A stretch of 64,000 nucleotides of DNA, from NCBI GenBank assembly GCA_964641225.1, contig CAZXKC010000002.1, positions 52,893 through 116,892 on the forward strand, given 5' to 3'. Numbering within the stretch: the stretch's first letter is position 1; every line of letters begins with the position of its first letter. Source of the DNA: an uncultured Candidatus Saccharibacteria bacterium. Lineage in GTDB: Bacteria; Patescibacteriota; Minisyncoccia; UBA6257; 1-14-0-10-44-23. The notes under the pieces were generated by a model. The model made no database searches, was not told the origin of the DNA, and worked only from the letters and a program-made list of their open reading frames with translations. Positions 3,038-59,225 of this stretch are shown piece after piece. The position numbers were made by a program, and so were the translations under genes.

Positions 3038-4552
3038 TTATCGTGCGTTAAGCGCAGCCTGTGTGGCTGGACCAACGTAGCCTTTTGCATCTATGCCGCG
3101 GGCAGACTGGAATTTCATAACTGCGGCCTGAGTGAGGGCACCAAAGTGGCCAGTCACCGAACCAGAGAAGTATCCAAGGTCTTTAAGGCGCTGTTGTAGT
3201 GCGCTTACTTCGGCACCATCTGAGCCCACATCTAAGAACTGCGTGAAGGTGTATGAGCTGGCTGAGACGCTGGTATTGCTTGTTGCCGAGGTTGAGGCGC
3301 CCATGGCTGTAGCCAGTTGATTGAGTGCTGTTGCCATAACCTGAATCTGGGCAAGCATTTGAGTAAGCTGAAGCTGCATGGCTTGAATGACTGAGGTGAG
3401 AGAGGCACCCGTGTTGACTGGGGTAGTGACTGCCGGAGTTTGTGTAGTGGTCGTTGTCCCCGTCGTTGTTGTACTACCGGTGACCGTAATGTTGAACGTA
3501 TTGCATCCGCCCGAGGTTCCACAGACGGTCATTGATGAGGTGCCGGCTCCAGTACCTGTTAGCGTGATTGTGTTGCCGCTGAGTGTTGCGTTTGCTACCG
3601 CCGGAGCTGGATTTGAGGTGACAAAATATGAAGAGGCGGTGCCGCCAACCGTCACGGTGAGCGACTGACCAACCGCAAGGCTTGGACTCATGTTGCTGAA
3701 GGTGACGGCCTGGCTACCGCTGGTGCTACCGCCTGTTGCACTTACGGTAATATTGAGCGTTCCGCAGCCGTTTGAGGTTGAACAGATTGTAATCACCGAT
3801 GAGCCAATCTGGTTACCGGAGACGCTGATTTGGCTGCCATTGATTGATACGGGGACTGTGTCCGGCATCGTGTTGCCGCTGACATAGTAGCCCGAGCCAC
3901 CCGTAGCGGTGATCACGAGAGTCTGGCCGGGGACGATAGTTGCACTTTGGTTGCTGAATGAAAGACTACCGGAGCTGCTACCATTTGTACTCACTGTGAC
4001 GTTGATCGTTCCACAGCCGCCGGTCTGCGCACAGACAGTAATAGTGCTATTTCCTGCGGCTAAGGCTGACAGTGAGGCGATGCTTCCATTTACAGAGGCG
4101 GAGACAATCGTCGAGTTACTATTGCCGCCGAGGTAGTAGCTGCCGTTGCCGCCGGAGATCGTAATTGAAAGACTTTGACCGATTGTCATCGTCGGCGCAT
4201 TTTGGCTAAACGATAACGCGCTGCTGGTTGTCTGAGTTCCATCAGTTACGGTTACTGAGAGGTTAGTACAATCCGTCGAGGTATTAACGTAACAGATACT
4301 GAGCGTAGTTGAGCCGAGTGAGGCGCCTACGATGGTGATCTGTGTACCGTTTATCTGGATTGAGGCAACGTTCGGGTTTGACGTGCTCATGCGGTAGACG
4401 GCTGTGGCCGTCGCCGTTGAACTTACTGTTGTTGATTGGCCCAGTCCAATAGTCACCGAGGTCTGATTCAGTGCCGGAGCGGCAAAGGCAACCGATGCTG
4501 CGGACAGTAATGCTACTGTCGCGGTCGCAAAAATACTAAGATATCGTTTCAT
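3038..4552 (-). CDS. Secreted surface protein with about five Ig-like tandem repeats and a C-terminal peptidoglycan-binding (PG_binding_1-like) domain
   Basis: Signal peptide MKRYLSIFATATVALLSAASVAFA. Repeated ~75-aa S/T/G-rich units each end in C..TGGCGT.N.TV. The C-terminus reads LQQRLKDLGYFSGSVTGHFGALTQAAVMKFQSARGIDAKGYVGPATQAAL. Confidence 0.7.
   Translation of the reverse strand: MKRYLSIFATATVALLSAASVAFAAPALNQTSVTIGLGQSTTVSSTATATAVYRMSTSNPNVASIQINGTQITIVGASLGSTTLSICYVNTSTDCTNLSVTVTDGTQTTSSALSFSQNAPTMTIGQSLSITISGGNGSYYLGGNSNSTIVSASVNGSIASLSALAAGNSTITVCAQTGGCGTINVTVSTNGSSSGSLSFSNQSATIVPGQTLVITATGGSGYYVSGNTMPDTVPVSINGSQISVSGNQIGSSVITICSTSNGCGTLNITVSATGGSTSGSQAVTFSNMSPSLAVGQSLTVTVGGTASSYFVTSNPAPAVANATLSGNTITLTGTGAGTSSMTVCGTSGGCNTFNITVTGSTTTTGTTTTTQTPAVTTPVNTGASLTSVIQAMQLQLTQMLAQIQVMATALNQLATAMGASTSATSNTSVSASSYTFTQFLDVGSDGAEVSALQQRLKDLGYFSGSVTGHFGALTQAAVMKFQSARGIDAKGYVGPATQAALNAR
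3415..4450. repeat. Intragenic tandem repeats of ~225 bp encoding Ig-like modules of the surface protein
   Basis: The protein units (…SFSQNAPTMTIGQSLSITISGGNGSYY… / …SFSNQSATIVPGQTLVITATGGSGYY… / …TFSNMSPSLAVGQSLTVTVGGTASSYF…) recur in register. Confidence 0.6.
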
Positions 4553-4609: not shown

Positions 4610-5836
4610 TTATTTCCACAAATTCCAGACGTGAGCGGCTACGTTGACTGGCGTACCTTCAAGCGGGAAGTGGTGTAAATCAATAAATGGCAAAGAATTG
4701 CATTCAATCACGCCCCACTGTTGTCTATTCGGATCTTGCGTGATGTCGGGGATGATAAAATCAAAGCCCATGACCGGAAAATCAACCAGTCGGCCAACTT
4801 CTTCTAATATTTTTTTTGTCTCCGGATGAGTGATTGCGATCTCCTCGGCTTTATATCCGCCATAGCCAATACCAATTTTCTCCATCACATCAATTGTTTT
4901 ACTCTGCGGTAATTTTGTCTCAAGCGTGTAGTTGTTGCGCGCCAAAAAATCCTCAATATACGGTGTTACGACAACCTCTTTTACTTCTGATTTGCGATGC
5001 TTATTTTTAAGTTCGATCAGCTCGCCAATGGTATGTTTACCATCGCCGGTGATGCGCGGTGGGTCGCCGCGCAGAACACCTACGAGCGTTCCGTTTACGA
5101 TCGTAGCACGGTACACGCTCCCAATGAGATGCTCCTCCATCACCAGACGCTCTGCGATCTGTTTAGCTGCCTTATATGCCTTTTTAAGCTGCTTTTCAGT
5201 ATAAATATACGTTGTGGTGTGCCGGCCCCGCGAGCCAAGCGCAGGCTTAATAATGACTGGTTTGCGCAGCATCTTAAAGACGCGCAACATCTCCTTCCAG
5301 GTTGTAAATCCGCCGCCGCGCGCGGCTGGCAGTCCTGCGGCTAGGATTTTTTCTTTGAGTTTAACTTTGTCGTCGAGCCACTGATTTGCGTCGGTATTTA
5401 AATGACGGGGAATTGGCAGGCTTTCAAAAAATATTGTTTCACCGTTAACGATCGCTGCATGAAAATCAGTCGGTTTACCGAACACTAGCATTTGTCTCAT
5501 CGGAATCCCGCGCGCCTGCGCCTCCTGCCAGATTACCTTTGAGCGACTGCTGCGGGATTTAGATATGTCGTCGTTAAAACGAATCACGCCCATTTTTTCA
5601 AAGGCATTGATAATGTAGGGCAGGGCATAGTGAAATGCCGGGTCAAAAAGTTTGCGCAGTCCAATTTTATATGCGAACTGGTCAATCGGATCCATTAACG
5701 CTGAAAAAATCTCATTTGTCTTAGCAAGACTGTGGGGGATTGGATTGTTGCCGCAGTAGTAGCATGGCCTCATGTTTTGAGTATACTTTATCCCGCGATC
5801 TAGACAAATTTGCATCAGCTCACGAAGGATCGCCAC
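4610..5836 (-). CDS. ATP-grasp family ligase (RimK / cyanophycin-synthetase-N-terminal-like); start codon uncertain
   Basis: VIIKPALGSRGRHTTT matches the ATP-grasp phosphate-binding pattern (VVKPxxGSxGxGV) and sits in a C-terminal grasp-like region. The annotated GTG start overlaps RNA-like element A; internal Met codons at 5815 and 5773 are alternative starts. Confidence 0.6.
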   Translation of the reverse strand: MAILRELMQICLDRGIKYTQNMRPCYYCGNNPIPHSLAKTNEIFSALMDPIDQFAYKIGLRKLFDPAFHYALPYIINAFEKMGVIRFNDDISKSRSSRSKVIWQEAQARGIPMRQMLVFGKPTDFHAAIVNGETIFFESLPIPRHLNTDANQWLDDKVKLKEKILAAGLPAARGGGFTTWKEMLRVFKMLRKPVIIKPALGSRGRHTTTYIYTEKQLKKAYKAAKQIAERLVMEEHLIGSVYRATIVNGTLVGVLRGDPPRITGDGKHTIGELIELKNKHRKSEVKEVVVTPYIEDFLARNNYTLETKLPQSKTIDVMEKIGIGYGGYKAEEIAITHPETKKILEEVGRLVDFPVMGFDFIIPDITQDPNRQQWGVIECNSLPFIDLHHFPLEGTPVNVAAHVWNLWK

Positions 5837-6044
5837 AAGGAGTAGGTTTACCTACTTCGAGGATGTCCCGACACAGAGATGATGCAAATTTGCCTGATCC
5901 CTTTGGGTTGCAGCCCGGCTGCCGCCTGATCTCGTTGCTCGCAAAAGCCCATGCTAAAGCATATTGTCTTTTGCGCACGCCGAGCCGGTCAGGCAGCCGG
6001 ATCAGCAACGCGGCGGAAAGATGCTCAGAGCATGGGGCTTAGCC
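5792..6044 (+). ncRNA. GC-rich structured-RNA-like element, copy A, of a two-copy family of unknown identity
   Basis: Shares the core ccgcgatctagacaaa … caaggagtag-hairpin-ctacttcgagga … gggttgc-hairpin … gagcaacgcgg with copy B. Helix sequences differ but remain complementary: A gacaaatttgcatc/gatgcaaatttgcc versus B gacaaaaacccgttag/ctaacgggtttttgtc, and A gtagg-ttta-cctac versus B gtagc-ttcg-gctac. Strand was inferred from the UUCG loop and a conserved G·U pair. Confidence 0.45.
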
Positions 6045-6062
6045 ATATTAAGGTATTGTATA

Positions 6063-6542
6063 ATGAAGCATATGGATGAACAAGAAATTATTTGGTCTTC
6101 GCCGGAATTCCATGTTGTAGAACGGAGCTCAAACTGGTATCTGGCTAGTTTAGTAGTTGCTGCCGCAATTGCTATATTTTGTTTGTTTCAGAAGAATTTT
6201 CTCTTTTTGCTCTTTGTGATCATCGCCGAGACAACGCTGCTTTTTATGACGAAACAAAAGCCGAAACTTTTTGGATATGAAATTACCAGTCAGGGGATTA
6301 CGGTTGATGATGTGCTGGTCTATAAATTCTCGGAAATGAACGGGTTTGCGATCGTTGATGACGGGGTCAGTATGTATGTTGAGCTGGTGATTCGGCCGAT
6401 AAAAAAGCTTGGTCAGTACGGCAAGATTTTATTGCCGCGGGTGATGACCGGTGAGGTGTTTGCAGTGCTTTCGCGATATACCTCGGAATTCAAATATGAG
6501 GAGACAATGACCGAGTCTATGATTAAGAGAATCGGGTTATAG
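6063..6542 (+). CDS. Membrane protein with bacterial PH-like (DUF304/YdbS-like) architecture
   Basis: Two N-terminal TM helices (WYLASLVVAAAIAIFCLF / LFLLFVIIAETTLLF) are followed by a beta-rich domain. ATG at 6063 (MKHMDEQ…) follows an AT-rich stretch. Confidence 0.55.
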   Translation: MKHMDEQEIIWSSPEFHVVERSSNWYLASLVVAAAIAIFCLFQKNFLFLLFVIIAETTLLFMTKQKPKLFGYEITSQGITVDDVLVYKFSEMNGFAIVDDGVSMYVELVIRPIKKLGQYGKILLPRVMTGEVFAVLSRYTSEFKYEETMTESMIKRIGL

Positions 6543-8284: not shown

Positions 8285-8371
8285 AGACTTTGAATTTTAG
8301 ACAGTCACCTCGGCAGGCAGAACAAGAGCCGGAACACTCGTAAATTGGTTTCTAGCGGCGTACAATAGGGA

Positions 8372-8419
8372 GCACAAAACCAAAACACCTGCGCTAATGC
8401 AGGTGTTTTGGTTTTGTGC
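8372..8419. terminator. Perfect 20-bp-stem hairpin between convergent genes
   Basis: gcacaaaaccaaaacacctg-cgctaatg-caggtgttttggttttgtgc. Confidence 0.5.
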
Positions 8420-8440
8420 TTAATGAGTAACTTAAGGTGA

Positions 8441-20653: not shown

Positions 20654-21574
20654 ATGGCCAAGATTGATGAGCTTCTTCAGGATTATTTGGATTATTTGAC
20701 TGTCGAGAAGGGGCGCTCGCCAAAGACGAGGCGTAATTACGAGCATTATTTGCGCGTATTTTTTAAGGATGCCGATATCAAGAAAGAAACAGATATTACC
20801 GAGCGCGTAGTTAAATCATTTCGTGTGCGACTTTCAGAGCAGCAGAGCGGTCGTGGTGGCGTGATGAAAAAGGTAACGCAGAATTATTACGTGATCGCGC
20901 TTCGCAGTTTTTTGAAATATCTTGCCAAGCATGATCATAACGTGATTGCCGCCGACAAGATTGAACTACCGAAAATTGCACAGCGCCAGATTGATATTCC
21001 TGAATATAAAGAGTTTGATCGACTGATGAGCGCCCCAGAGGGCGAAAGCCTGCGCGCACTGCGCGATCGCGCCATCTTAGAGACACTATTTTCAACAGGC
21101 CTGCGTGTTTCTGAGTTATGTAACCTGAGTCGCTACCTTGATCTGAGTCGCGGAGAGATAACCGTACGCGGTAAGGGTGAAAAACTGCGCGTGGTGTTTT
21201 TTTCAGATAGCTGTAAGGCAACGATAAAAAAGTATTTAGATGCGCGCGGCGATGCTATGGAGTGGATGTTTGTCAGTCTCACACGGGTTCCGAAGAAATC
21301 GCAGAAGCCACCGAAGGTGATCGGCAAAATAACTCCGCGTTCTGTGCAAAACATGGTGAATTTTTATTCCCGCAAAGCCGGGCTTTCTCAGAAGGTGACG
21401 CCACACAAGCTTCGTCACTTATTTGCCACTGACTTACTGATTAACGGCGCCGACCTGCGTTCCGTTCAAGAACTGCTTGGTCACAGCAATATTTCTACCA
21501 CGCAAATTTATACGCACTTAACTAATAAACAATTAGGGGACGTGCATAAGAAATTCCATGGAAAGCGGACGTAG
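20654..21574 (+). CDS. xerC: XerC/XerD-family tyrosine recombinase
   Basis: N-terminal SAM-like domain (LQDYLDYLTVEKGRSPKTRRNYEHYLRVFF). C-terminal catalytic motifs HKLRHLFATDLL…LLGHSNISTTQIYTHL. Confidence 0.85.
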   Translation: MAKIDELLQDYLDYLTVEKGRSPKTRRNYEHYLRVFFKDADIKKETDITERVVKSFRVRLSEQQSGRGGVMKKVTQNYYVIALRSFLKYLAKHDHNVIAADKIELPKIAQRQIDIPEYKEFDRLMSAPEGESLRALRDRAILETLFSTGLRVSELCNLSRYLDLSRGEITVRGKGEKLRVVFFSDSCKATIKKYLDARGDAMEWMFVSLTRVPKKSQKPPKVIGKITPRSVQNMVNFYSRKAGLSQKVTPHKLRHLFATDLLINGADLRSVQELLGHSNISTTQIYTHLTNKQLGDVHKKFHGKRT

Positions 21575-21610: not shown

Positions 21611-21692
21611 GCTCTCGTGGTGAAATTGGCAGACACGCCACCCTTAGGAGGTGGTGCCGCAAGGCATGGAGGTTCAAGTCCTCCCGAGAGCA
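21611..21692 (+). tRNA. tRNA-Leu (TAG)
   Basis: Acceptor GCTCTCG/CGAGAGC, anticodon stem CCACC/GGTGG with loop CTTAGGA, long variable arm TGCCGCAAGGCA, T-arm GGAGG-TTCAAGT-CCTCC, discriminator A. Confidence 0.85.
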
Positions 21693-21703
21693 CCCTGAAA
21701 ATC

Positions 21704-21743: not shown

Positions 21744-22091
21744 CTAACCTTGTCCGAGCAACTGCGCAACTACGAACGATACTCCTTGTGCCAAGAAGGC
21801 GACGGCGATGGCAACTACTGCGTAGATGATGCGCTGGTGAGCTGCTTTAACTTTTTCTTCGTCACCACCAGAGGTCAGGTAAGCGAAGGCGGCCCAGATG
21901 ATCATCAGTACTGCGACAACGAGTAAAATAGTGAACAACCAGCGGATGACGGTGTCAAAAATACCAAGAACTCCTTCAAAGCTACGAATGCCTGGAGGCG
22001 GAGTCGTTGTCGGGATATCGATAGCCATAGCAGCTAGAGGCATAAAGGCTACGAATGCAATTGCGCTGATCGCGAGAATCTTTTTCTTCAT
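21744..22091 (-). CDS. TrbC/VirB2-like (T4SS-pilin-like) small secreted protein, a singleton copy
   Basis: Signal peptide followed by two TM segments around a short SGG..E loop (…IRWLFTILLVVAVLMIIWAAFAYLTSGGDEEKVKAAHQRIIYAVVAIAVAFL…). The same motif recurs in the 24583-27867 array. Confidence 0.6.
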   Translation of the reverse strand: MKKKILAISAIAFVAFMPLAAMAIDIPTTTPPPGIRSFEGVLGIFDTVIRWLFTILLVVAVLMIIWAAFAYLTSGGDEEKVKAAHQRIIYAVVAIAVAFLAQGVSFVVAQLLGQG

Positions 22092-22210: not shown

Positions 22211-22412
22211 CCTAGAGCCTGCTGAGAAACCCCCTCCGTACCGCGTTGCTCAGCCACAACGGCTGGCAACCCTCTGGGATCCGACAAAAACCCGTTAGCC
22301 CTTTGTCGGCTCGTCCTCGAAGTAGCCGAAGCTACTCCTTGCGGCGAGTCTTCTCGGTCTAACGGGTTTTTGTCTAGATCGCGGTTGAAGGGGGTTTCCC
22401 GGCAGGCTCTAA
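22211..22412 (-). ncRNA. GC-rich structured-RNA-like element, copy B
   Basis: On the minus strand the closing helix is agagcctgc-cggGAAACCCCCT paired with AGGGGGTTTC-tca-gcaggctct. Internal helices are gacaaaaacccgttag/ctaacgggtttttgtc, ggagtagc-UUCG-gctacttc and gttgc-cagcc-gttgt-ggctg-a-gcaac. It aligns to copy A with compensatory substitutions. Confidence 0.45.
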
Positions 22413-22435: not shown

Positions 22436-22464
22436 TTGACAAAATAGATATAGTATGCTATACT
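22436..22464 (+). promoter_or_regulatory. Consensus sigma70-type promoter upstream of the GC-rich two-gene island
   Basis: TTGACA, then 17 nt (aaatagatatagtatgc), then TATACT (a TATAAT also overlaps at 22464-22469). Confidence 0.55.
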
Positions 22465-22713
22465 ATAATTCGTCAGTCGTGTACCTTGAAAACCTAGGTA
22501 TAGAGCCGTTTTTAGCGGTTTTATGCAATACCTTGCTCTAATTCGTCACGAAATGGGAATCGTATAGCTGATAATGCATAGTCAGCTATACAACTCCCGT
22601 TTCGTGTTAAGTTTGGTTCCTTGTGGAGCCAGCACGGATGGGGCAAGGGCTCTAGTGGCCCGACGCGGGCAAAAGAATGGCCCGCGTTAAGCGGCCATTG
22701 GAGGAGAAAGAAC

Positions 22714-23772
22714 ATGAGTGCAGGACACGGTAGTGGCGGTGGCAAGGGGATGGCGATCTTCGGACTGGTCATCCTGACCACCGTAATCGCCGTGCTCTTC
22801 ATGGTCTTGCCGGAGGAATACCAGCTGCTGATCGGCGCCATCGCGCTTGTCGCAGGGCTCGGACTCACGGCAGTCATCTTCTGTGCGAAGAGCGTTGTCT
22901 TCAACAAGGCAGGGCATGCTCTGATCCAGGAGGAGTTTGGTGATCCCGTAGGAGACGTGAAGAGAAGCCCGGGACCCGCATGGGTTCCGGCATATCGCCG
23001 ACCGATCGTGGTGCACGAGGAGATCAAGACCCTCGATACTACGATCAGGATCGTCACCAGCGGCAGCGCTCAGCCGATTCCCGGACTCTCGATGCTCGCT
23101 AGTCTGCCCGAAGGGCTCGCGATCGAGATTGATGGCTTCATCCGCTATCGGGATTCGGCCACGGTGCTCGACGCCATGGGCAATCCTCAGGTTCTCAGAG
23201 TCAGCAGGCAGAACAGGGAGACTGCGATTCGGCACGCCAGCGAATCGGTGGGCACTATGATCGGCTCCGGATATACGATGGGGGACATCCTCCTGCATCT
23301 TCCGGAGGTCGACAAGATCCACAAGTGCCGACTCGAGCTCTCTCGCATGCCCAATGACGACTCGAGGTTCCTGGATCACTACGGCGTTCGTCGTCCTGTG
23401 CCTCACAAGCTGCCGGACTTCTTCCGTCGTAACCACGCCCGAGTTGACGAGTGGATCGAGCGGTGGGCGGCCACTGAGTCTTCCAGGACCGAAAAGGATG
23501 TCGCGGTCGAGATCATCGAGACCGGAATCCGCAGGGTCAGGCTGCCTCCCCAGATCGACGCTCTCAATCAGCGTAGGGTCTACGGCATCGTCTTCGGCGA
23601 GCTCGTCAAGTCTTACGTTGACGACTACGGAATGACGCCTGCTGAGGCCAAGATCAGCGCTGCTCAAGTGCTGGGGTTCGATGCCCAGACGCGCGAGGTT
23701 CGTTCAACCGGAACTGGCAGGGGTCGTAACATCAACGTGATCGATGGCGGTCACGGCGGTTCGCACCACTAG
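22714..23772 (+). CDS. Hypothetical membrane protein on a GC-rich island; two N-terminal TM helices then a ~280-aa soluble domain, possibly SPFH/band-7-like
   Basis: RBS ggaggagaaagaacATG. Sequence runs MSAGHGSGGGKGMAIFGLVILTTVIAVLFMV…LLIGAIALVAGLGLTAVIF…. GC content is about 60%. The SPFH assignment is tentative. Confidence 0.5.
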   Translation: MSAGHGSGGGKGMAIFGLVILTTVIAVLFMVLPEEYQLLIGAIALVAGLGLTAVIFCAKSVVFNKAGHALIQEEFGDPVGDVKRSPGPAWVPAYRRPIVVHEEIKTLDTTIRIVTSGSAQPIPGLSMLASLPEGLAIEIDGFIRYRDSATVLDAMGNPQVLRVSRQNRETAIRHASESVGTMIGSGYTMGDILLHLPEVDKIHKCRLELSRMPNDDSRFLDHYGVRRPVPHKLPDFFRRNHARVDEWIERWAATESSRTEKDVAVEIIETGIRRVRLPPQIDALNQRRVYGIVFGELVKSYVDDYGMTPAEAKISAAQVLGFDAQTREVRSTGTGRGRNINVIDGGHGGSHH

Positions 23773-23807
23773 CGTAGTTCACTTCACAGAGAAAGGAATT
23801 CGGAAAG

Positions 23808-24407
23808 ATGACTGAAGCACACGCGCCGCATGCTGAAGAAGAGCACGGCCACGACGCTGACGAACCCGTCTTCGAGACGGCTCCTACCTTCTGGGACGAG
23901 CAGAAGAGCTGGCTCGTGCCGGTCCTCGTGATTCTCATCACGCTGGCCTTCGTTGTTCCGATCGTCTTGCTCCTGAAGGCGCATGCGAAGGCGAAGCAGG
24001 AGGCACTCAAGCAGGTGCCCGCGGCCGTCCAGCCGCAGGCGACTCAGCAGTACGGCGTGCCGGTGGCTGCGCCACAGGTCGTCGAGATGCCCCAGGACGA
24101 GGTCTACCCGCGCGATATCGCCGGCGGCAAGACCTGGGAGAAGATCTACGGCGGCACCCGGGCGAAGGTCCGGCGGCCGGCCAACGGGTATGTCCAGTGG
24201 CAGGACGTGCTCATCAGTACAGACGGGAAGAGTTGGCAGAACTTCCCGGACGGTCGTAACAACTACGACCACACGCTCGCCGAGCAGTCCGGAGTCTTCG
24301 ATATCCGGGCCGTCGATGAAACGATTCCGTTCAATCGCGGAATCAGGGTGGTGATCGCCGACCATCCGCTGCCCGATCCTCCCGGTGCGGGAACGATCGT
24401 CAAGTAG
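23808..24407 (+). CDS. Hypothetical single-pass membrane protein on a GC-rich island
   Basis: RBS gaaaggaa. An acidic, His-rich N-terminus precedes a TM helix (WLVPVLVILITLAFVVPIVLLL) and a Q/P-rich extracellular part. It is co-oriented with the upstream gene at a 35-bp gap. Confidence 0.5.
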   Translation: MTEAHAPHAEEEHGHDADEPVFETAPTFWDEQKSWLVPVLVILITLAFVVPIVLLLKAHAKAKQEALKQVPAAVQPQATQQYGVPVAAPQVVEMPQDEVYPRDIAGGKTWEKIYGGTRAKVRRPANGYVQWQDVLISTDGKSWQNFPDGRNNYDHTLAEQSGVFDIRAVDETIPFNRGIRVVIADHPLPDPPGAGTIVK

Positions 24408-24582: not shown

Positions 24583-25080
24583 TTAAAACTTGATATTTGG
24601 GTTGAGCTGAATGCTGCCGTACTTTGTGTTGACGTTGATGCTGGCGTTTACATTGCCATTCTGGTTTCCGTTAAGACCATTTTGGCCAACTGCGCTGCTG
24701 CCGTCGCTGACGAGCTGGTATACAACAAATACAATGCCTTTTGAAAGAAGAGCGACGGCAATTGCTACTGCGGCGTAAATGATCATCTTGTGGGCTGAAG
24801 CAACGGCCTCTTCTGCGCCTCCTGAGAACATGTATTTGTAGGCCGCAAAGATGATCCACATCACGGCGAGTACGAGCAGGAGGATAAACATCCAGTTGGC
24901 GATCGTAACGATCAGGCCCTGAATGCCGCTTAAGCCATCACCGCTTTGACCTAAGATTGTGTTTTGCGCGCAGGGGATCGGGCCGCTACAGTCTTGCGTA
25001 ATGTTTTGCTGCGCAAAGGCAACGACGGGCAACAAGAATGTTGCAAGAGAGGCCGCTACAGTTGTAATAAATGTTTTCAT
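24583..25080 (-). CDS. T4SS-pilin-like (TrbC/VirB2-like) protein, array member 5
   Basis: Signal peptide, then …IANWMFILLLVLAVMWIIFAAYKYMFSGGAEEAVASAHKMIIYAAVAIAVALL…, then an N/G-rich tail. Confidence 0.6.
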   Translation of the reverse strand: MKTFITTVAASLATFLLPVVAFAQQNITQDCSGPIPCAQNTILGQSGDGLSGIQGLIVTIANWMFILLLVLAVMWIIFAAYKYMFSGGAEEAVASAHKMIIYAAVAIAVALLSKGIVFVVYQLVSDGSSAVGQNGLNGNQNGNVNASINVNTKYGSIQLNPNIKF

Positions 25081-25092
25081 GCAGATGATAAA

Positions 25093-25821
25093 TTAATTTA
25101 TATTACGGCCATCGAGTGGCCGAATCTCGCCTCCGCTGACACACATAACTGGTCTGCGGCCGTTGGAGCACTGCTGAACCTCGGCGGTGTGTCCTGGAAT
25201 ACTGTAAGGTACAAGTACCGACTGCTTGCCGTCGCTTAAGGTTATATTACTCAAGCTGCCAAAAGTTTGTCCATCCATAATCACAGCAGGGTATTTGGTT
25301 ACGTAACTACCCGAGCTATCTTTGTCGTTGCTGCAGTAGTCGACGAAGACGTCGGTCAGTGTCGGGTGAGGTACTTTAAAGAAGCCGACACCTGGATTTG
25401 CGCAGATTCCCGGAGTAGGGCCTAGCGCAGAGGTTGCCGGCGTTGAGGTTGCCGAGGTCGAGGTGGTGCCACCGCTTCCGCCAAGCACAAAGCGCTGTAC
25501 CGTAAAGACGATACCTTTAGCGAGTGTGCCGACGGCAATAGCGACGGCGGCGTACATCAGCATCTTGTGCGCAGTGCTGACACCTTCTTCGCTGCCACCA
25601 CTAAACAAGTATTTGTAGGCTGCGTAGACGATAAAGGCAACGGCCAGAACAATTAAAAGAGTGAAAAACCAGTTGATGACGGTGTTGATGAGCGCAAGTA
25701 CAGAATCTTCTCCTTGCGGCAGACTGTCTGGTAGTTGTTGGACGCCGCTGACTTGAGCCATTGCTAAGGCAGGAGAGAGAGTCAGGAGCGTAAGTGTCAG
25801 AGCAGTAAAAAGTTTTCGCAT
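25093..25821 (-). CDS. T4SS-pilin-like protein with a Cys-containing C-terminal extension, array member 4
   Basis: …VINWFFTLLIVLAVAFIVYAAYKYLFSGGSEEGVSTAHKMLMYAAVAIAVGTL… plus a ~120-aa tail. Confidence 0.6.
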   Translation of the reverse strand: MRKLFTALTLTLLTLSPALAMAQVSGVQQLPDSLPQGEDSVLALINTVINWFFTLLIVLAVAFIVYAAYKYLFSGGSEEGVSTAHKMLMYAAVAIAVGTLAKGIVFTVQRFVLGGSGGTTSTSATSTPATSALGPTPGICANPGVGFFKVPHPTLTDVFVDYCSNDKDSSGSYVTKYPAVIMDGQTFGSLSNITLSDGKQSVLVPYSIPGHTAEVQQCSNGRRPVMCVSGGEIRPLDGRNIN

Positions 25822-25825
25822 ATGA

Positions 25826-26230
25826 TTACACCTTTGTTACAAAGTTTTGTACGAGCGAAACTAATCCGCGCGAAAGGGTTGCAACAGCGACTGCGATAGC
25901 GCCGTACATAATCATTTTGTGCGCTGTGCCGACATTTTCGCCGCCACCGGCTGTTAGGTAAATAAAGGCGGCGTAGATAAACATGATGATCGCTACCGAG
26001 ATAAAGATGGTGAACATCCAGTTGATGATTTTGTTGATCAAGCCAATTACTTTTTCTTCAGTATCAAGTACGCCTTCGGTGTTGCCGGCACCGTTTGGTG
26101 GTACCTGCTGCACATTGGTCGGGCTACCGTTTGGTGGTACCTGCGTTGTTTGCGCTGTGGCAATAAATGGTGAAGCGATCAGAATACCTGCAGAAAGACC
26201 GGCTGCTAAAAGAACAAGAGTTTTTTTCAT
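25826..26230 (-). CDS. T4SS-pilin-like protein, array member 3
   Basis: …IINWMFTIFISVAIIMFIYAAFIYLTAGGGENVGTAHKMIMYGAIAVAVATL…. Confidence 0.6.
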   Translation of the reverse strand: MKKTLVLLAAGLSAGILIASPFIATAQTTQVPPNGSPTNVQQVPPNGAGNTEGVLDTEEKVIGLINKIINWMFTIFISVAIIMFIYAAFIYLTAGGGENVGTAHKMIMYGAIAVAVATLSRGLVSLVQNFVTKV

Positions 26231-54918: not shown

Positions 54919-55893
54919 ATGGCCCACATCCCAGTTCTTTTACATGAGGTTCTTGAGGTGCTCAGTCCTAAAGTAGGCGAGCAGTTTGCAGATGGCACAC
55001 TTGGCGCCGGCGGACATGCACGAGAAATATTAATGCGCATAACGCCCGGGGGAACGTTGCTTGCTGTTGATCGCGATACTCGTGCTGTGCAGGCTACGGC
55101 AAAAACGTTGCCGCATGACGCAAAGACGCGAGTGCTCGTAGAGGCCGGAAGCTATGCGCGCATTCCAAAGTTTATGCAGCAATTTGGAATTGCTAAGCTC
55201 GACGGGCTTCTGCTAGATCTTGGTTTTTCATCAGAGCAGATTGTCGGTGGTACGCTCTCAGGTCGCGGGTTTAGTTTTATGACCGACGAGCCGCTGCTGA
55301 TGACCTACGACGATGAAACTCCGCCGTTAGCACAGGTTCTTGCCGAGCTTTCTGTAGCTGATCTGGCCGCAATCATTCGCGAGTATGGCGAGGAGCGCTA
55401 TGCGGACAAGATTGCGCAGAGTATTTTAGAGCGGGCAAAGAGCCAGGGAATTGCAACGACCGGTGCATTGGTTGAAGCGATCAAGGCTGCCGTGCCGAGT
55501 AATTACGAGCAAGGGCGCATTCATCCGGCAACGCGTACGTTTCAAGCGCTACGGATTTATGTAAACAGTGAATTAAAGCAGCTCGAAAATTTGCTCGCAG
55601 AATTGCCAAACATTATGGCGCCAGGGGGTCGAGTGGCGATAATCAGTTTTCACTCACTCGAGGACAGAATCGTGAAGCATTATTTTCAAGATTTTGCGCG
55701 AAATAGGGAAGGGCGTTCGGTGGAAGGAATCTATAACAAGATGAATTCCAAGTCTGGGGAGACACCGAACTCCTTCTCTGCGTCGCGCGACGCAGAACTC
55801 ATAACTAAAAAACCAATCACCGCCTCGGATGCAGAGCTTGCTGTAAATCCGCGCGCGCGTTCGGCAAAGCTCAGGGCAATTACTTTTTTATAA
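54919..55893 (+). CDS. rsmH: 16S rRNA (cytosine1402-N4)-methyltransferase RsmH
   Basis: MAHIPVLLHEVLEVL…DGTLGAGGHA… I chose the internal Met; the ORF-track start at 54883 adds 12 residues. Confidence 0.85.
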   Translation: MAHIPVLLHEVLEVLSPKVGEQFADGTLGAGGHAREILMRITPGGTLLAVDRDTRAVQATAKTLPHDAKTRVLVEAGSYARIPKFMQQFGIAKLDGLLLDLGFSSEQIVGGTLSGRGFSFMTDEPLLMTYDDETPPLAQVLAELSVADLAAIIREYGEERYADKIAQSILERAKSQGIATTGALVEAIKAAVPSNYEQGRIHPATRTFQALRIYVNSELKQLENLLAELPNIMAPGGRVAIISFHSLEDRIVKHYFQDFARNREGRSVEGIYNKMNSKSGETPNSFSASRDAELITKKPITASDAELAVNPRARSAKLRAITFL

Positions 55894-55897
55894 CGCA

Positions 55898-56233
55898 ATG
55901 ACAATTTCTCATTCAAATCCAACGCGATACGCAACCGGTGCCATCAGAATACTGCTTGGTGTCATTGTGATTTCATGTCTTTCCAGCATCTTTTTATATA
56001 ACCGGATGGTGCAGGCGCGTAGGGCCGACAATCAAATTACGAAAGTTGTAGATCAGCTGAAGGTTGAAAATGCGAAATTGAAAAATGATTTATATACGAT
56101 GATTGATGGTCGCTCGCTCACCATGCACGCTGAACGTTTGGGGTATATTAAAGATAGCAATCCGGCCTATATTACGTTTCTTGCTGATGGGTCGGTCCGC
56201 GAGGGAGCTACGGTTTCATTGTTAGAGCGATAA
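55898..56233 (+). CDS. ftsL: FtsL-like cell-division membrane protein
   Basis: TM helix (AIRILLGVIVISCLSSIFLY) followed by a coiled coil (VDQLKVENAKLKNDL). Sits between rsmH and ftsI. Confidence 0.5.
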   Translation: MTISHSNPTRYATGAIRILLGVIVISCLSSIFLYNRMVQARRADNQITKVVDQLKVENAKLKNDLYTMIDGRSLTMHAERLGYIKDSNPAYITFLADGSVREGATVSLLER

Positions 56234-56238
56234 CATAT

Positions 56239-57879
56239 ATGAGAGTTCGTTTTGGTTTACTTGTCGGATGCACGATCTGTGTTTTTTTGTTTCTAGCCGG
56301 TACGCTTTACAATATTCAGGTGCGCCACGCAGATCGGTATGAAGCGCGCGCAAAGGCGCAGCAATTACTTAACAGTGATCTTATACCTGAACGCGGCACT
56401 ATCTCTTTGCTTGATAAAGATGGTAGATCAATTCCGCTTGCAGTCAATCAGGATTACAATATTATTTTTGCCGTACCGAAAGAGATTGATGATACAACAG
56501 AGACTGGTAGCCGTGTTGCTACGCTGCTGGGTCTTGCGCCAGAGACGATTATCGCCAAGTTGAATAAGGCAAGCTCAGGCGCTTTGTATAAGGAGCTTGT
56601 GGTAAAGGCAACCGATAGCGATGCCCGCGCGATTGATGCGGCGGAGATTAAAGGAATTTATACAACTACTAAGCGAGGCCGGCACTATCCGTTTGGTTCG
56701 GTTGCTGCTCAGGTTGTCGGCTTCGTAAGTCAGCCTGACGAGTTGTCGCCATTTACGGGCCAATACGGAATTGAGAAACAATTTGATGCGATGCTGCTCG
56801 GTACGCCGGGCGCTGTGGGTGAGAAGGGGGTGATAACGCCGCCAACTCCCGGTGAAAATATTCAGCTGACTATCGATCAATATGTTCAGCAGCATGCGCA
56901 GGAGATACTCGAGAATTTGGTAAAAGATAAACGAGCTAAAAGCGGATCAATTATTGTTGAGGATCCGGTAACCGGAAAAATTTTAGGACTGACTAATTAT
57001 CCGACCTTTGATCCTAATGAATACGGTAAAAGTCCGCTTGAAGTATTCACCAATCCTGCGGTGCAAGGGTTATATGAACCTGGTTCTGTATTAAAGCCGC
57101 TGACCATGGCGATTGGTATTGATACAGGCGTTATTACCCCAAACACCACGTATTATGATCCGGGTTATTTTACCGCCAATGGCAAAACCATTAAAAATTG
57201 GGATTTGCTTGCACACGGAATGCTGACAATGACCAACGTCATCGAGCAGTCGATTAACACCGGTGTAGTCTTTGTTGAAAAGAAAATCGGACACTCACGG
57301 TTTTATGACTATTTACTGAAATTTGGATTAAAAGATCTGACAGGTATTACGCTGCCGGGTGAGGCGGCAGGTAGGCTCACGCCACTGGAAAAATATCCGC
57401 GTGATATTAACTTTGCAACCGCCTCGTATGGGCAGGGAGTTGCCGTGACGCCGATTCGGATGATCGCTGCTATGTCGGCAATCGCCAATGGCGGCATGAT
57501 GGTGGAGCCATATATTATTGAAGGTGCGCATACGCCGCCGCCACGCACTATTGTGAGTCCGCAAACAGCACGACAGGTAACCGATATGATGGTTTCGGCG
57601 GTAGATAAGGCAAAGGTGGCAGTGATTCCGCAGTACACGGTTGCCGGTAAGACCGGCACTGCATTTGTTCCGGATTTTGTCAGCGGCGGCTATAGCGACA
57701 AGGTTATCAATACCTATATTGGGTTTGCTCCGGCGTATAAACCGCGATTTATTATCCTGATTAAATTAGATCAACCTGAGAATGCGCCACTAGCCGGTAC
57801 GACGGTCGTCCCTGCGTTTCGTGAGTTTGCCGAGTTTTTGCTTAACTACTATACCGTCGCGCCTGATAAAGTTCAGTAG
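56239..57879 (+). CDS. ftsI: Peptidoglycan D,D-transpeptidase FtsI / PBP2-class penicillin-binding protein
   Basis: N-terminal TM helix. Motifs SVLKP (SxxK), SIN (SxN) and KTGTA (KTG). Confidence 0.85.
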   Translation: MRVRFGLLVGCTICVFLFLAGTLYNIQVRHADRYEARAKAQQLLNSDLIPERGTISLLDKDGRSIPLAVNQDYNIIFAVPKEIDDTTETGSRVATLLGLAPETIIAKLNKASSGALYKELVVKATDSDARAIDAAEIKGIYTTTKRGRHYPFGSVAAQVVGFVSQPDELSPFTGQYGIEKQFDAMLLGTPGAVGEKGVITPPTPGENIQLTIDQYVQQHAQEILENLVKDKRAKSGSIIVEDPVTGKILGLTNYPTFDPNEYGKSPLEVFTNPAVQGLYEPGSVLKPLTMAIGIDTGVITPNTTYYDPGYFTANGKTIKNWDLLAHGMLTMTNVIEQSINTGVVFVEKKIGHSRFYDYLLKFGLKDLTGITLPGEAAGRLTPLEKYPRDINFATASYGQGVAVTPIRMIAAMSAIANGGMMVEPYIIEGAHTPPPRTIVSPQTARQVTDMMVSAVDKAKVAVIPQYTVAGKTGTAFVPDFVSGGYSDKVINTYIGFAPAYKPRFIILIKLDQPENAPLAGTTVVPAFREFAEFLLNYYTVAPDKVQ

Positions 57880-57923
57880 CTTTTTTAGAGTCTTTTCGTC
57901 TATTATTGAAGTATAGATAGGGT

Positions 57924-59225
57924 ATGGCAGAACAATCAAAAAAAGCGCTGTTGCGCGTCATTGAGTGGTTGGCGAAAAAAACAGTGGCGCGCTTTAAGCC
58001 TGTTGTAATAGGAGTAACCGGCAGCGTCGGGAAAACCTCGACCGTAGAGGCGATCGCTACTGTGTTAGCTAACAAGAGGCGTATTCGTGCTAGTCATACA
58101 GATTTCAGCGGTGAATACGCGATTCCGCTTGCTGTGCTTGGGGCCTGGCCAGAGGAGGATCTTCAATTAGTTGATCCATGGACTGCTTCGGGCCTCTCGT
58201 CGGGAAAGAGAACGCGTTTTTTGCTGCGCGTTATTATCGTAAGTTTTTTTAAATATATATGCGGGATCAAAAAAATGTACCCCGAGGTATTAGTGTTTGA
58301 ATATGCTTCGCAAAAGCCGGGCGATCTTGCCGCTCAACTGGATATTGTCAGACCAAACATTAGCGTAGTAACGGCTGTTGGAGATGCGCCGGCACACGTT
58401 GAGTCATATGTCTCAGCTGAGGCCGTTGCAAAAGAGAAGGCGCGCCTTGTCGAGTCCTTGCCCGCAAGTGGACTTGCGGTGCTGTGTGGTGATGAATTGC
58501 GCGTCAGCGTGATGGCTCAAAAAACACGCGCAACCGCACTGACATTTGGCTTTGCTGAAAGTTGCGATGTGCGCATTATTGATTTTGAAAACAAGATTGA
58601 GTCGCGCGACGGCCTCCTGAAACCGATCGGCATAACCTTTAAGCTTGGTTATGATGGAGCATTTGTTCCTGTGCGTATTAGCGGTAGTCTTGGATCTCCT
58701 GCCTCCTACGCCGCTGCAGCGGCCGCCTGTGTTGGCTTGGCATTTAATTTAAATCTAGTCGATGTATCGCAGGCGCTCGCATATTACAAACCGCCGGCCT
58801 CACGCATGCAGTTTTTACGCGGTATTCATAATTCTGTGCTTATCGATGACTCCTATGATGCCTCGCCGCTCTCTATGCGTATGGCCATAGAGACGGTCAA
58901 AGAAATTAAAGCAAAGCGGACTATAGCCGTACTCGGCGATATGCGTGAGCTTGGAGAATTTTCACTGCCGGCGCATAAAGAAATTGCCGCATTTGCAGCA
59001 AAAATATTCGATGTGATTGTTGCCGTTGGCCCGCAGGCAACTCAGTTTGCTGAAGCTGCGGTTAAGGCGCGCATACCCAAAAAGAATATTTTTTATGTTA
59101 TTCATGTTGAAGATGCGCTTACGCAACTTCCCGGTCTTATCCAGGCAGGAGATGTAGTGCTTATTAAGGGTGATCGCGCGATGCAACTTGAGAAAGCAGT
59201 TCAGGCGCTGACTCCTAAGATTTAG
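57924..59225 (+). CDS. murF: UDP-N-acetylmuramoyl-tripeptide--D-alanyl-D-alanine ligase
   Basis: Mur ligase P-loop GVTGSVGKTST and the MurF-type DDSYDASP (DDSYNAN) motif. Confidence 0.75.
   Translation: MAEQSKKALLRVIEWLAKKTVARFKPVVIGVTGSVGKTSTVEAIATVLANKRRIRASHTDFSGEYAIPLAVLGAWPEEDLQLVDPWTASGLSSGKRTRFLLRVIIVSFFKYICGIKKMYPEVLVFEYASQKPGDLAAQLDIVRPNISVVTAVGDAPAHVESYVSAEAVAKEKARLVESLPASGLAVLCGDELRVSVMAQKTRATALTFGFAESCDVRIIDFENKIESRDGLLKPIGITFKLGYDGAFVPVRISGSLGSPASYAAAAAACVGLAFNLNLVDVSQALAYYKPPASRMQFLRGIHNSVLIDDSYDASPLSMRMAIETVKEIKAKRTIAVLGDMRELGEFSLPAHKEIAAFAAKIFDVIVAVGPQATQFAEAAVKARIPKKNIFYVIHVEDALTQLPGLIQAGDVVLIKGDRAMQLEKAVQALTPKI

Follow-up and report, generated by a model that had tools for sequence, protein, structure and literature searches.

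Two copies of a foldable, inverted-repeat-bounded element in a Saccharibacteria contig: probable members of a dispersed mobile repeat family

The copy B locus, its fold and its relatives

Positions 22213-22411 of the window (the whole stretch of DNA analysed here, 64,000 nucleotides of contig CAZXKC010000002.1 from an uncultured Candidatus Saccharibacteria bacterium) hold a 199-nt element, copy B, whose inverted-repeat ends pair as a closing helix. A homologous element, copy A, lies at 5765-6037. Both are probably members of a previously uncatalogued family of non-coding mobile repeats resembling miniature inverted-repeat transposable elements (MITEs). The setting of copy B is as an earlier note on this DNA had described it: a tRNA-Leu gene (21611-21694) and a pilin-like gene (21744-22091, minus strand; conserved domain PF18895, T4SS_pilin, E-value: 1.4e-9) lie on one side and a near-consensus promoter (22436-22464, plus strand) on the other. 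Copy B is on the same strand as the pilin-like gene and 120 nt upstream of it. A gene for an Xer-type recombinase (20654-21574) is located 640 nt from the element. The parts of copy B, read from its 5' end, and the neighbouring promoter are listed here; L011 and L026 are related loci in other genomes.

22213-22411, minus strand: copy B as a whole, 199 nt, TAGAGCCTGC...GCAGGCTCTA (covariance model, 134.6 bits)
22385-22411, minus strand: 5' strand of the closing helix P1, a terminal inverted repeat (folding, repeat search)
22377-22384, minus strand: junction CCGCGAUC, invariant in copy A, copy B, L011 and L026
22278-22376, minus strand: long hairpin P2, 99 nt, with purine-rich internal loops (folding, alignments)
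22314-22341, minus strand: tip CAAGGAGUAGC-UUCG-GCUACUUCGAGGA, including a conserved G.U pair (tip helix invariant in the 29 rows of the family alignment)
22270-22278, minus strand: mini-hairpin CCC-AGA-GGG, with an invariant stem and a free loop in both long-form subfamilies
22246-22269, minus strand: short hairpin P3 with a UUGC...GCAA base, truncated relative to copy A, L011 and L026
22213-22240, minus strand: 3' strand of P1, a terminal inverted repeat (folding, repeat search)
22436-22464, plus strand: promoter-like site of the host's downstream two-gene operon, 24 nt outside copy B and not part of the element

The closing helix, which the earlier note had given as 19 bp, is real. A repeat search finds inverted arms of 23 nt at 22213-22235 and 22389-22411 (91% complementary), in which agagcctgc/cgg/GAAACCCCCT pairs with AGGGGGTTTC/tca/gcaggctct. 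At the junction, CCGC is paired with GCGG (22241-22245), and GAUC with a second GAUC located at the 3' foot of P2; segment GCAACGCGG pairs back to CCGCGAUC. The UUCG-capped hairpin proposed for the minus strand is present as GUAGC-UUCG-GCUAC within 22314-22341. The minus strand of copy B has a minimum free energy of -128 kcal/mol, compared with -72.7 +/- 4.4 kcal/mol for dinucleotide shuffles (z = -12.6; none of 200 shuffles reached this stability), and the plus strand is likewise stable (z = -11.3). A site scan detected neither a promoter-like nor a terminator-like site framing copy B, and no promoter-like site upstream of it on the minus strand.

A blastn search of the window with copy B returned a single related stretch, a 124-nt core at 5793-5915 on the opposite strand (72% identity), so that copy A, also put forward in the earlier note, exists and is homologous. 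Folding of 5730-6050 gives copy A the same architecture as copy B, with the tip at 5836-5863 and a much longer P3 (5908-6008); the shared helices are therefore reproduced by folding algorithms. The earlier note had found no counterpart in copy A to the closing helix of copy B. Copy A does have one, which was missed by eye because its sequence is unrelated to that of copy B.

5765-6037, plus strand: copy A as a whole, 273 nt (blastn, folding, covariance model 128 bits)
5765-5792, plus strand: 5' strand of the closing helix of copy A, pairing with 6015-6037; sequence unrelated to P1 of copy B

Within the 64-kb window, copies A and B were the only ones returned by a fuzzy search for the tip and by a covariance-model search run without filters. 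A hit at 8368-8431, considered as a further copy, is an ordinary terminator-like hairpin.

Relatives in other genomes were sought by an exact search for the tip pattern AAGGAGTAG-N4-12-CTACTTCGAGG in one genome per species (596 Gb). The pattern occurs at 32 loci, against approximately 10 expected by chance (our estimate, from 20 fixed bases, 9 gap lengths and 2 strands). A covariance model of 119 nt, derived from four long copies, gives 26 sense-strand matches at E < 0.05, in 25 of the 32 loci, and the credible relatives number approximately 25. Their hosts in the Patescibacteria are metagenome-assembled genomes (MAGs) annotated as Harrisonbacteria, Saccharibacteria, Spechtbacteria and Pacebacteria, together with unclassified ones; the other hosts are Anaeromyxobacteraceae and Polyangiaceae (Myxococcota), Solirubrobacterales (Actinomycetota), Gemmatimonadota and a Pseudomonadales MAG. 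L011 is annotated as Harrisonbacteria, and L026 was deposited as Saccharibacteria, in an assembly whose Xer protein is 88% identical to that of the window. Chance or unrelated-looking hits comprise L016, L019 and L028, which lie inside long open reading frames (ORFs), and two archaeal hits that match at the tip only. The one hit from a metagenome scan is the same in-ORF sequence as L028 and was judged a chance match.

The plain form of the element (~160 nt) consists of P1 and the P2 hairpin and is found mostly outside the Patescibacteria, while the long form (200-390 nt) adds the mini-hairpin and P3. Some genomes hold several copies: the Patescibacteria MAG JAHCSD01 has eight (86-95% identity), with homology stopping exactly at the inverted repeats, and Anaeromyxobacteraceae JBGQLS01 has three and one degenerate copy. 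The same or a near-identical tip was also seen in tandem hairpins that lack the usual terminal repeats, in a Chlamydiales MAG (L031 4961-5315, three units of 119 nt) and in a GC-rich MAG labelled Enterobacterales (L032 3289-3494, 1.9 units of 107 nt).

No described family shows sequence similarity to the element in Rfam or BLAST searches. At the gathering score, Rfam 15 matched only tRNAs and one 16S rRNA (in L011) across the window, both copies and 20 related loci; permissive searches returned nothing credible over copies A and B (E <= 10) or over eight related loci (E <= 0.5), the only hits being spurious ones of microRNA type. Scans and BLAST searches of viral contigs, phage records and plasmid records gave no match. 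A literature search on the tip motif, the terminal repeat and the repeats or structured RNAs of Patescibacteria found nothing describing such a family. By-hand comparison of the tip with the kink-turn, loop E/sarcin-ricin, SRP domain IV, the L1-binding site and the Y-RNA/Ro site found none that fits the consensus.

The fold is conserved across the family. Copies A and B, L011 and L026 share 60-72% overall sequence identity; in an alignment of these four sequences made with MAFFT, and thus not fitted to structure, 94.9% of cells are paired (36-45% in slid controls) and compensatory changes occur in 29 of 79 pairs (3-12 in slid controls). These include 11 of the 21 pairs of the P2 main stem and 8 of the 14 closing-helix pairs (helices 1-2 of the alignment). 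A 29-row family alignment fitted to the covariance model, which leans towards structure for that reason, has 90.3% of cells paired (63% in shuffles, ~40% in slid controls) and compensatory changes in 31 of 39 pairs. The tip helix GGAGUAGY/RCUACUUC is invariant in all 29 rows. Its second pair is the G.U pair that the earlier note had singled out; it is kept in both window copies and in 26 of the 29 rows. The internal loop at the tip has the form 5'-(G/C)AA / 3'-GA. The GC content of the element ranges from 0.38 to 0.71 and tracks that of the host, while the tip is fixed throughout. This unchanged 20-nt tip in copies of 38% to 71% GC argues for a specific molecular partner.

A coding function was considered, as copies A and B lie in open frames of 98-100 codons with similar peptides. 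It was ruled out because loop length differs across the family by non-multiples of three, so that no reading frame through the tip is conserved.

Of the two strands, the one proposed in the earlier note (minus for copy B, plus for copy A) is the better supported. Independently of the covariance model, the G.U pair is conserved on this strand, and stem mismatches on the strand carrying AAGGAGUAG are purine-purine in 61 cases and pyrimidine-pyrimidine in 14. The short forms are more stable on the AAGGAG strand by 3.5-33 kcal/mol (by at least 9 kcal/mol in seven of eight). The covariance model scores copy B at 134.6 bits on the minus strand and 36.2 bits on the other, the model having been built on the former.

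Insertion sites, ends and flanks

The locus of copy B can be compared directly with its orthologues. Homologues of the Xer protein of the window are found on long contigs at 88%, 76% and 72% identity, and the relatives have a conserved gene order: RmuC, an unknown gene, Xer, the pilin gene (minus strand), an intergenic region, two genes (plus strand) and pilins. Copy B is missing from the orthologous intergenic region of three relatives in which synteny is kept (L037, L038 and L039/L040). The pilin-proximal sequence and the promoter (TTGACA-17-TATACT with TG, 11/12) are conserved in the element-free L037, and the spacing between them is ~290 nt in the window and ~88 nt in L037; the difference equals the element. 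At the junctions the sequence is ...TTGACC-TA[GAGCC...GGCTC]TA-AATGCC in the window, compared with ...TTGACC^AAAAAG in L037. Both the A and B loci are empty in the relative with the 88% identical Xer protein. This closest relative does carry an A-like copy (L026), situated at a different, unrelated locus. Judged by sequence comparison, copies A and B are insertions specific to the lineage of the window genome, because the orthologous sites are empty in syntenic relatives. As relatives with the same pilin gene have no element, copy B is not required at the pilin locus.

Copy A is inserted behind the third codon of a gene for an ATP-grasp protein (4610-5773, minus strand). The original start of this gene, ATGGCTAAG, is now orphaned as the reverse complement of 6038-6046, and the present start, ATGAGGCCA, is the reverse complement of 5765-5773, within the terminal repeat of copy A. 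This start agrees with the NCBI gene call (387 aa; P0121). Deletion in silico of exactly 5765-6037 fuses ...GCAGTAGTAGCA to CTTAGCCAT... and restores the start MAKCYYCGNN, while relatives begin MSKCYY and MKCYY. Homologues of the ATP-grasp protein (70% and 69% identity; L041 and L042) have the same divergent small gene 50-75 nt away with no element between; in the window, copy A is on the same strand as this small membrane-protein gene (6063-6542) and 25 nt upstream of it. A promoter-like sequence, TTGTCT-16-TATACT, lies inside copy A on the minus strand (5807-5780) and ends 6 nt before the ATP-grasp ATG, and the ATP-grasp mRNA may be leaderless. Copy A shows that elements of this family can remodel neighbouring genes. 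Between copy A and its closest relatives, L011 and L026, there is no shared synteny.

A second intragenic insertion is seen in a Spechtbacterales MAG (JBBDXP010000013.1; L029 3921-4381), in which a 388-nt member splits a tRNA-Glu gene in the D-loop. Within the mini-hairpin, the loop holds an entire second tRNA-Glu gene (4089-4163; Rfam, 58 bits) with a 15-bp inverted repeat around it. The gene upstream of the split tRNA-Glu is syntenic with window positions 55309-59210, which are followed there by an intact tRNA-Glu gene. The L029 member looks like an insertion that compensates for the tRNA-Glu gene it disrupted. A group I intron in a tRNA (PMC13011429) was considered for this locus and rejected, because Rfam finds no intron there and the element lies antisense to the tRNA. 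In the same MAG, another member (L017 514-885) is nested in a palindromic element of another kind, whose inverted ends are 30 nt long (TGGTGTTCGGAATCTCTG...); several types of hairpin repeat are therefore present in this MAG.

No credible copy lacks terminal inverted repeats. The terminus (A)GAGYCTG recurs in four phyla, and other subfamilies end differently (e.g. GGGCTC). Perfect 3-nt TNA direct repeats surround L021, L004, L006 and L030, sometimes within C-TNA-G. TA is found at both sides of most JAHCSD01 copies and of copy B, where it is either a flank or the end of the element itself. In approximately half of the copies, the ends and flanks would fit a derivative of the IS5 family or PIF/Harbinger.

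An all-against-all comparison of ORFs at the 32 loci revealed no recurrent neighbour protein family, and orientation relative to neighbouring genes is mixed. The neighbour pairs that are shared are all housekeeping genes (DAHP synthase, TsaD, ABC-F, IF-2 and a DNA polymerase beta thumb/PHP-domain protein). The association with secreted or membrane-protein genes that the earlier note had drawn from the two window copies is not borne out by the ~25 copies.

Mobile repeat and alternative explanations

The elements are 160-390 nt in size, have no transposase ORF and have inverted-repeat ends that pair as a closing helix. They are considered to behave as mobile repeats because they are multi-copy, have terminal inverted repeats and fill sites in one genome that are empty in relatives. 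The proposed model is as follows. The element would be moved in trans by an enzyme encoded elsewhere, and the (A)GAGYCTG termini and TA/TNA flanks may point to a DDE transposase like those of IS5 and PIF/Harbinger. The IS5-type consensus in ISfinder comprises a terminal GAG and TNA. Copy B landed between the divergent promoters that serve the pilin-like gene and the two-gene operon, in the lineage of the window genome only; this is probably a harmless spot. The whole element is predicted to fold as one strand, that carrying AAGGAGUAG, as RNA or single-stranded DNA (ssDNA). The invariant tip, with its G.U pair and its 5'-(G/C)AA / 3'-GA loop, is a putative recognition site for a mobilising or processing factor. 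Because the copies of close relatives lie at different loci and keep ~95% pairing at 60-72% identity, selection would act on the element lineage, most likely on its competence to spread, and the fold is probably needed for the element's own spread.

MITEs are defined as short elements that have inverted-repeat ends and flanking target duplications and can form long stem-loops, and the Bacillus repeat bcr1 shows compensatory changes (PMC3184786). Like bcr1 of the Bacillus cereus group and Correia/nemis of Neisseria, the present elements are short, non-coding, bounded by terminal inverted repeats and dispersed in intergenic regions, with a number and position that vary among relatives (PMC3184786). 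Each of the known families is restricted to a single genus or group, whereas here a 20-nt tip is invariant in at least four phyla and the termini vary. Further differences from bcr1 and Correia/nemis are that target duplication is not uniform, that the architecture is modular (a hairpin of ~160 nt or a junction of 200-390 nt) and that one copy has a tRNA gene. The (A)GAG... termini and the flanking repeats of 3 nt (TNA) or 2 nt (TA) are shared with the IS5 family (IS1031 and IS427 groups) and with PIF/Harbinger and its Tourist MITEs; IS1031-group elements recognise three nucleotides (PMC2516522), and IS5 and Harbinger are related (PMC12730594). Unlike in the IS5 family, no IS5-type transposase with these ends was found, copy A has no duplication and several subfamilies have quite different termini.

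A number of observations weigh against the model of a MITE-like mobile repeat. Copy number is low, with two copies in the 64-kb window and one exact-tip match in each of the L011 and L026 assemblies. Target duplications are inconsistent: none is found at L029, L010, L017 or L026, and the most parsimonious reconstruction gives none for copy A. Neither an autonomous partner nor a transposase was detected in the window or in the 8-kb flanks of the 32 loci. The centre of the element is invariant across phyla and the terminal repeats differ by subfamily, which is the opposite of end recognition by a DDE enzyme. The conserved centre, the inconsistent duplications and the missing partner enzyme are at odds with an ordinary DDE-mobilised MITE. 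In principle, hairpin-templated repair, and not selection, could produce the compensatory changes of a DNA palindrome. As for the folded strand, the long forms, including copies A and B, fold nearly equally well on both strands, and outside the tip the excess of G.U over A.C (23 vs 13) is not significant as a strand test (p = 0.13); for these two reasons the choice of strand depends mostly on the tip and on the internal loops.

The elements could instead be a distinct mobile class, present in several phyla, that is recognised not by the termini but by the internal hairpin, with a single strand folded as RNA or ssDNA. The machinery would then possibly be encoded by relatives whose terminal loop holds an ORF directly behind the Shine-Dalgarno-like AAGGAG, and the loops may carry cargo, such as the tRNA gene. 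This is thought unlikely, although it is given some weight.

It is also doubtful, to a similar degree, that the elements are free-standing genes for a structured small RNA (sRNA) useful to the host, acting in trans (perhaps as a sponge for proteins or a scaffold, through the tip) and horizontally spread, with the "terminal repeats" being simply the closing helix of the RNA. The strong covariation and the junction architecture with its conserved unpaired nucleotides are what such a gene would have, and an invariant tip, a conserved G.U pair and purine-rich internal loops are typical of protein-binding RNA motifs. The single exact-tip copies of the L011 and L026 assemblies, the retention of structure at 60-72% identity and a GC content that follows the host (0.38-0.71) around a constant tip would likewise be explained. 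Such a gene, however, would not be expected to lack a framing promoter or terminator, as copy B does, or to occupy different loci even in close relatives, with both window sites empty in the relative with the 88% identical Xer protein. The eight near-identical copies in JAHCSD01, the insertions into a tRNA gene and a coding start and the TNA/TA flanks are also at odds with it, and no host factor common to all the host phyla is evident.

Recognition of the hairpin shape in ssDNA by a tyrosine recombinase or an HUH enzyme, with attC sites, CTX-phage attP/XerCD and REPIN/RAYT as models, is improbable. The elements resemble REP/REPIN sequences and attC sites as repeats recognised as folded single strands, with structure above sequence; their structure is more conserved than the sequence of their ends, the fold is strand-specific with conserved unpaired bases, and copy A and L029 have no target duplication. 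The Xer-type recombinase gene near copy B would fit as well, but it is a conserved housekeeping copy that is also present in element-free relatives. REP units are 20-40 nt long with GTAG at the foot of the hairpin and an associated RAYT gene, whereas the elements described here are far longer (160-390 nt) and have GTAG at the tip. No RAYT gene, integron integrase or other recurrent gene was found near the copies at the 32 loci (whole genomes were not searched for RAYT). Similarly, attC sites have RYYYAAC/GTTRRRY ends and occur in cassette arrays with an integron integrase, while these elements have (A)GAGYCTG, GGGCTC and other ends and are solitary intergenic copies. The 3-nt direct repeats at several copies also argue against an ssDNA site.

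Intron- or retroelement-like movement via an RNA intermediate is very improbable. The tip would in that case be a binding site for a reverse transcriptase or maturase, as in group II intron domain IVa, whose hairpin carries the Shine-Dalgarno sequence of the intron ORF. The AAGGAG of the tip is indeed a perfect Shine-Dalgarno sequence just before the terminal loop, the insertions in a tRNA gene and a coding start have no duplication, and the loop of one copy carries cargo. As with HEARO/omega RNA, IS605-orfB and group II intron domains, the elements are structured, sometimes multi-copy, ORF-less and in mobile contexts; they differ from these in having no Rfam match and no associated nuclease or reverse transcriptase gene. 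No group I, group II or ribozyme family is matched even at E <= 10, and no reverse transcriptase was found among the ORFs neighbouring the copies. TNA/TA direct repeats are present at other copies. Both intragenic copies are antisense to the interrupted gene, and because of this the well-folded strand could not be spliced from the interrupted transcripts. A retron msr-msd was also considered and rejected, as the neighbours of copy B are the T4SS_pilin-like gene and two genes with no Pfam match and no reverse transcriptase lies near the other copies.

A cis-regulatory leader or upstream element of the pilin-like gene, as the earlier note had suggested, is scarcely credible. Although copies B and A are co-oriented with the genes 120 nt and 25 nt downstream (21744-22091 and 6063-6542, respectively), the element is missing at orthologous pilin genes whose proximal upstream region is conserved and which share the divergent promoter and the synteny. 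Within the family, neither orientation nor neighbours follow a common pattern, and the minus strand has no promoter-like site upstream of copy B.

The genomes of Patescibacteria are tiny and streamlined, and mobile repeats are thought to be rare in them. The element family described here is active in this group. For annotation, the lesson is that strong fold scores and covariation alone do not indicate a regulatory RNA; in the case of copy B, the question of a regulator was settled by checking the orthologous sites in relatives. A tip that stays the same from phylum to phylum, and a copy that bears cargo, make the family more noteworthy than a routine MITE.

The gene neighbourhood of copy B

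The two genes downstream of the promoter (22714-24407) had been called a GC-rich island. The genes are GC-rich, but they are not a recent island, as three relatives have a gene pair in the same slot (L037 8170-10547, L038 8944-10787 and L039 8755-10487) that is GC-rich too (0.59-0.66, compared with 0.49-0.55 for the locus). The first gene of the slot has no detectable similarity between genomes, and the second is ~30% identical over 84-115 residues in two pairwise comparisons (W2/L037 and L037/L039). The two window proteins have no Pfam match and have N-terminal regions with hydrophobic stretches. The slot looks like a fast-evolving gene pair within a cluster of pilin-like genes. This cluster comprises the pilin-like gene at 21744-22091 and, at 24583-26230, three consecutive ORFs of similar appearance, an arrangement that is conserved in relatives; the only one of the three ORFs that was compared with Pfam (24583-25080) falls just under the curated cut-off.

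Between the promoter and the first GC-rich gene lies a 60-nt palindrome (22547-22606) with 30-nt arms (83% complementary). Its foot, CACGAA...TTTCGTG, is conserved in L037, and Rfam gives only spurious hits of microRNA type. This palindrome may be a leader hairpin of the operon. A public short-read contig (L035; run SRR14271332) is identical to the window and ends at ~22630, just before the GC-rich genes, which could reflect either strain variation or a break in the assembly.

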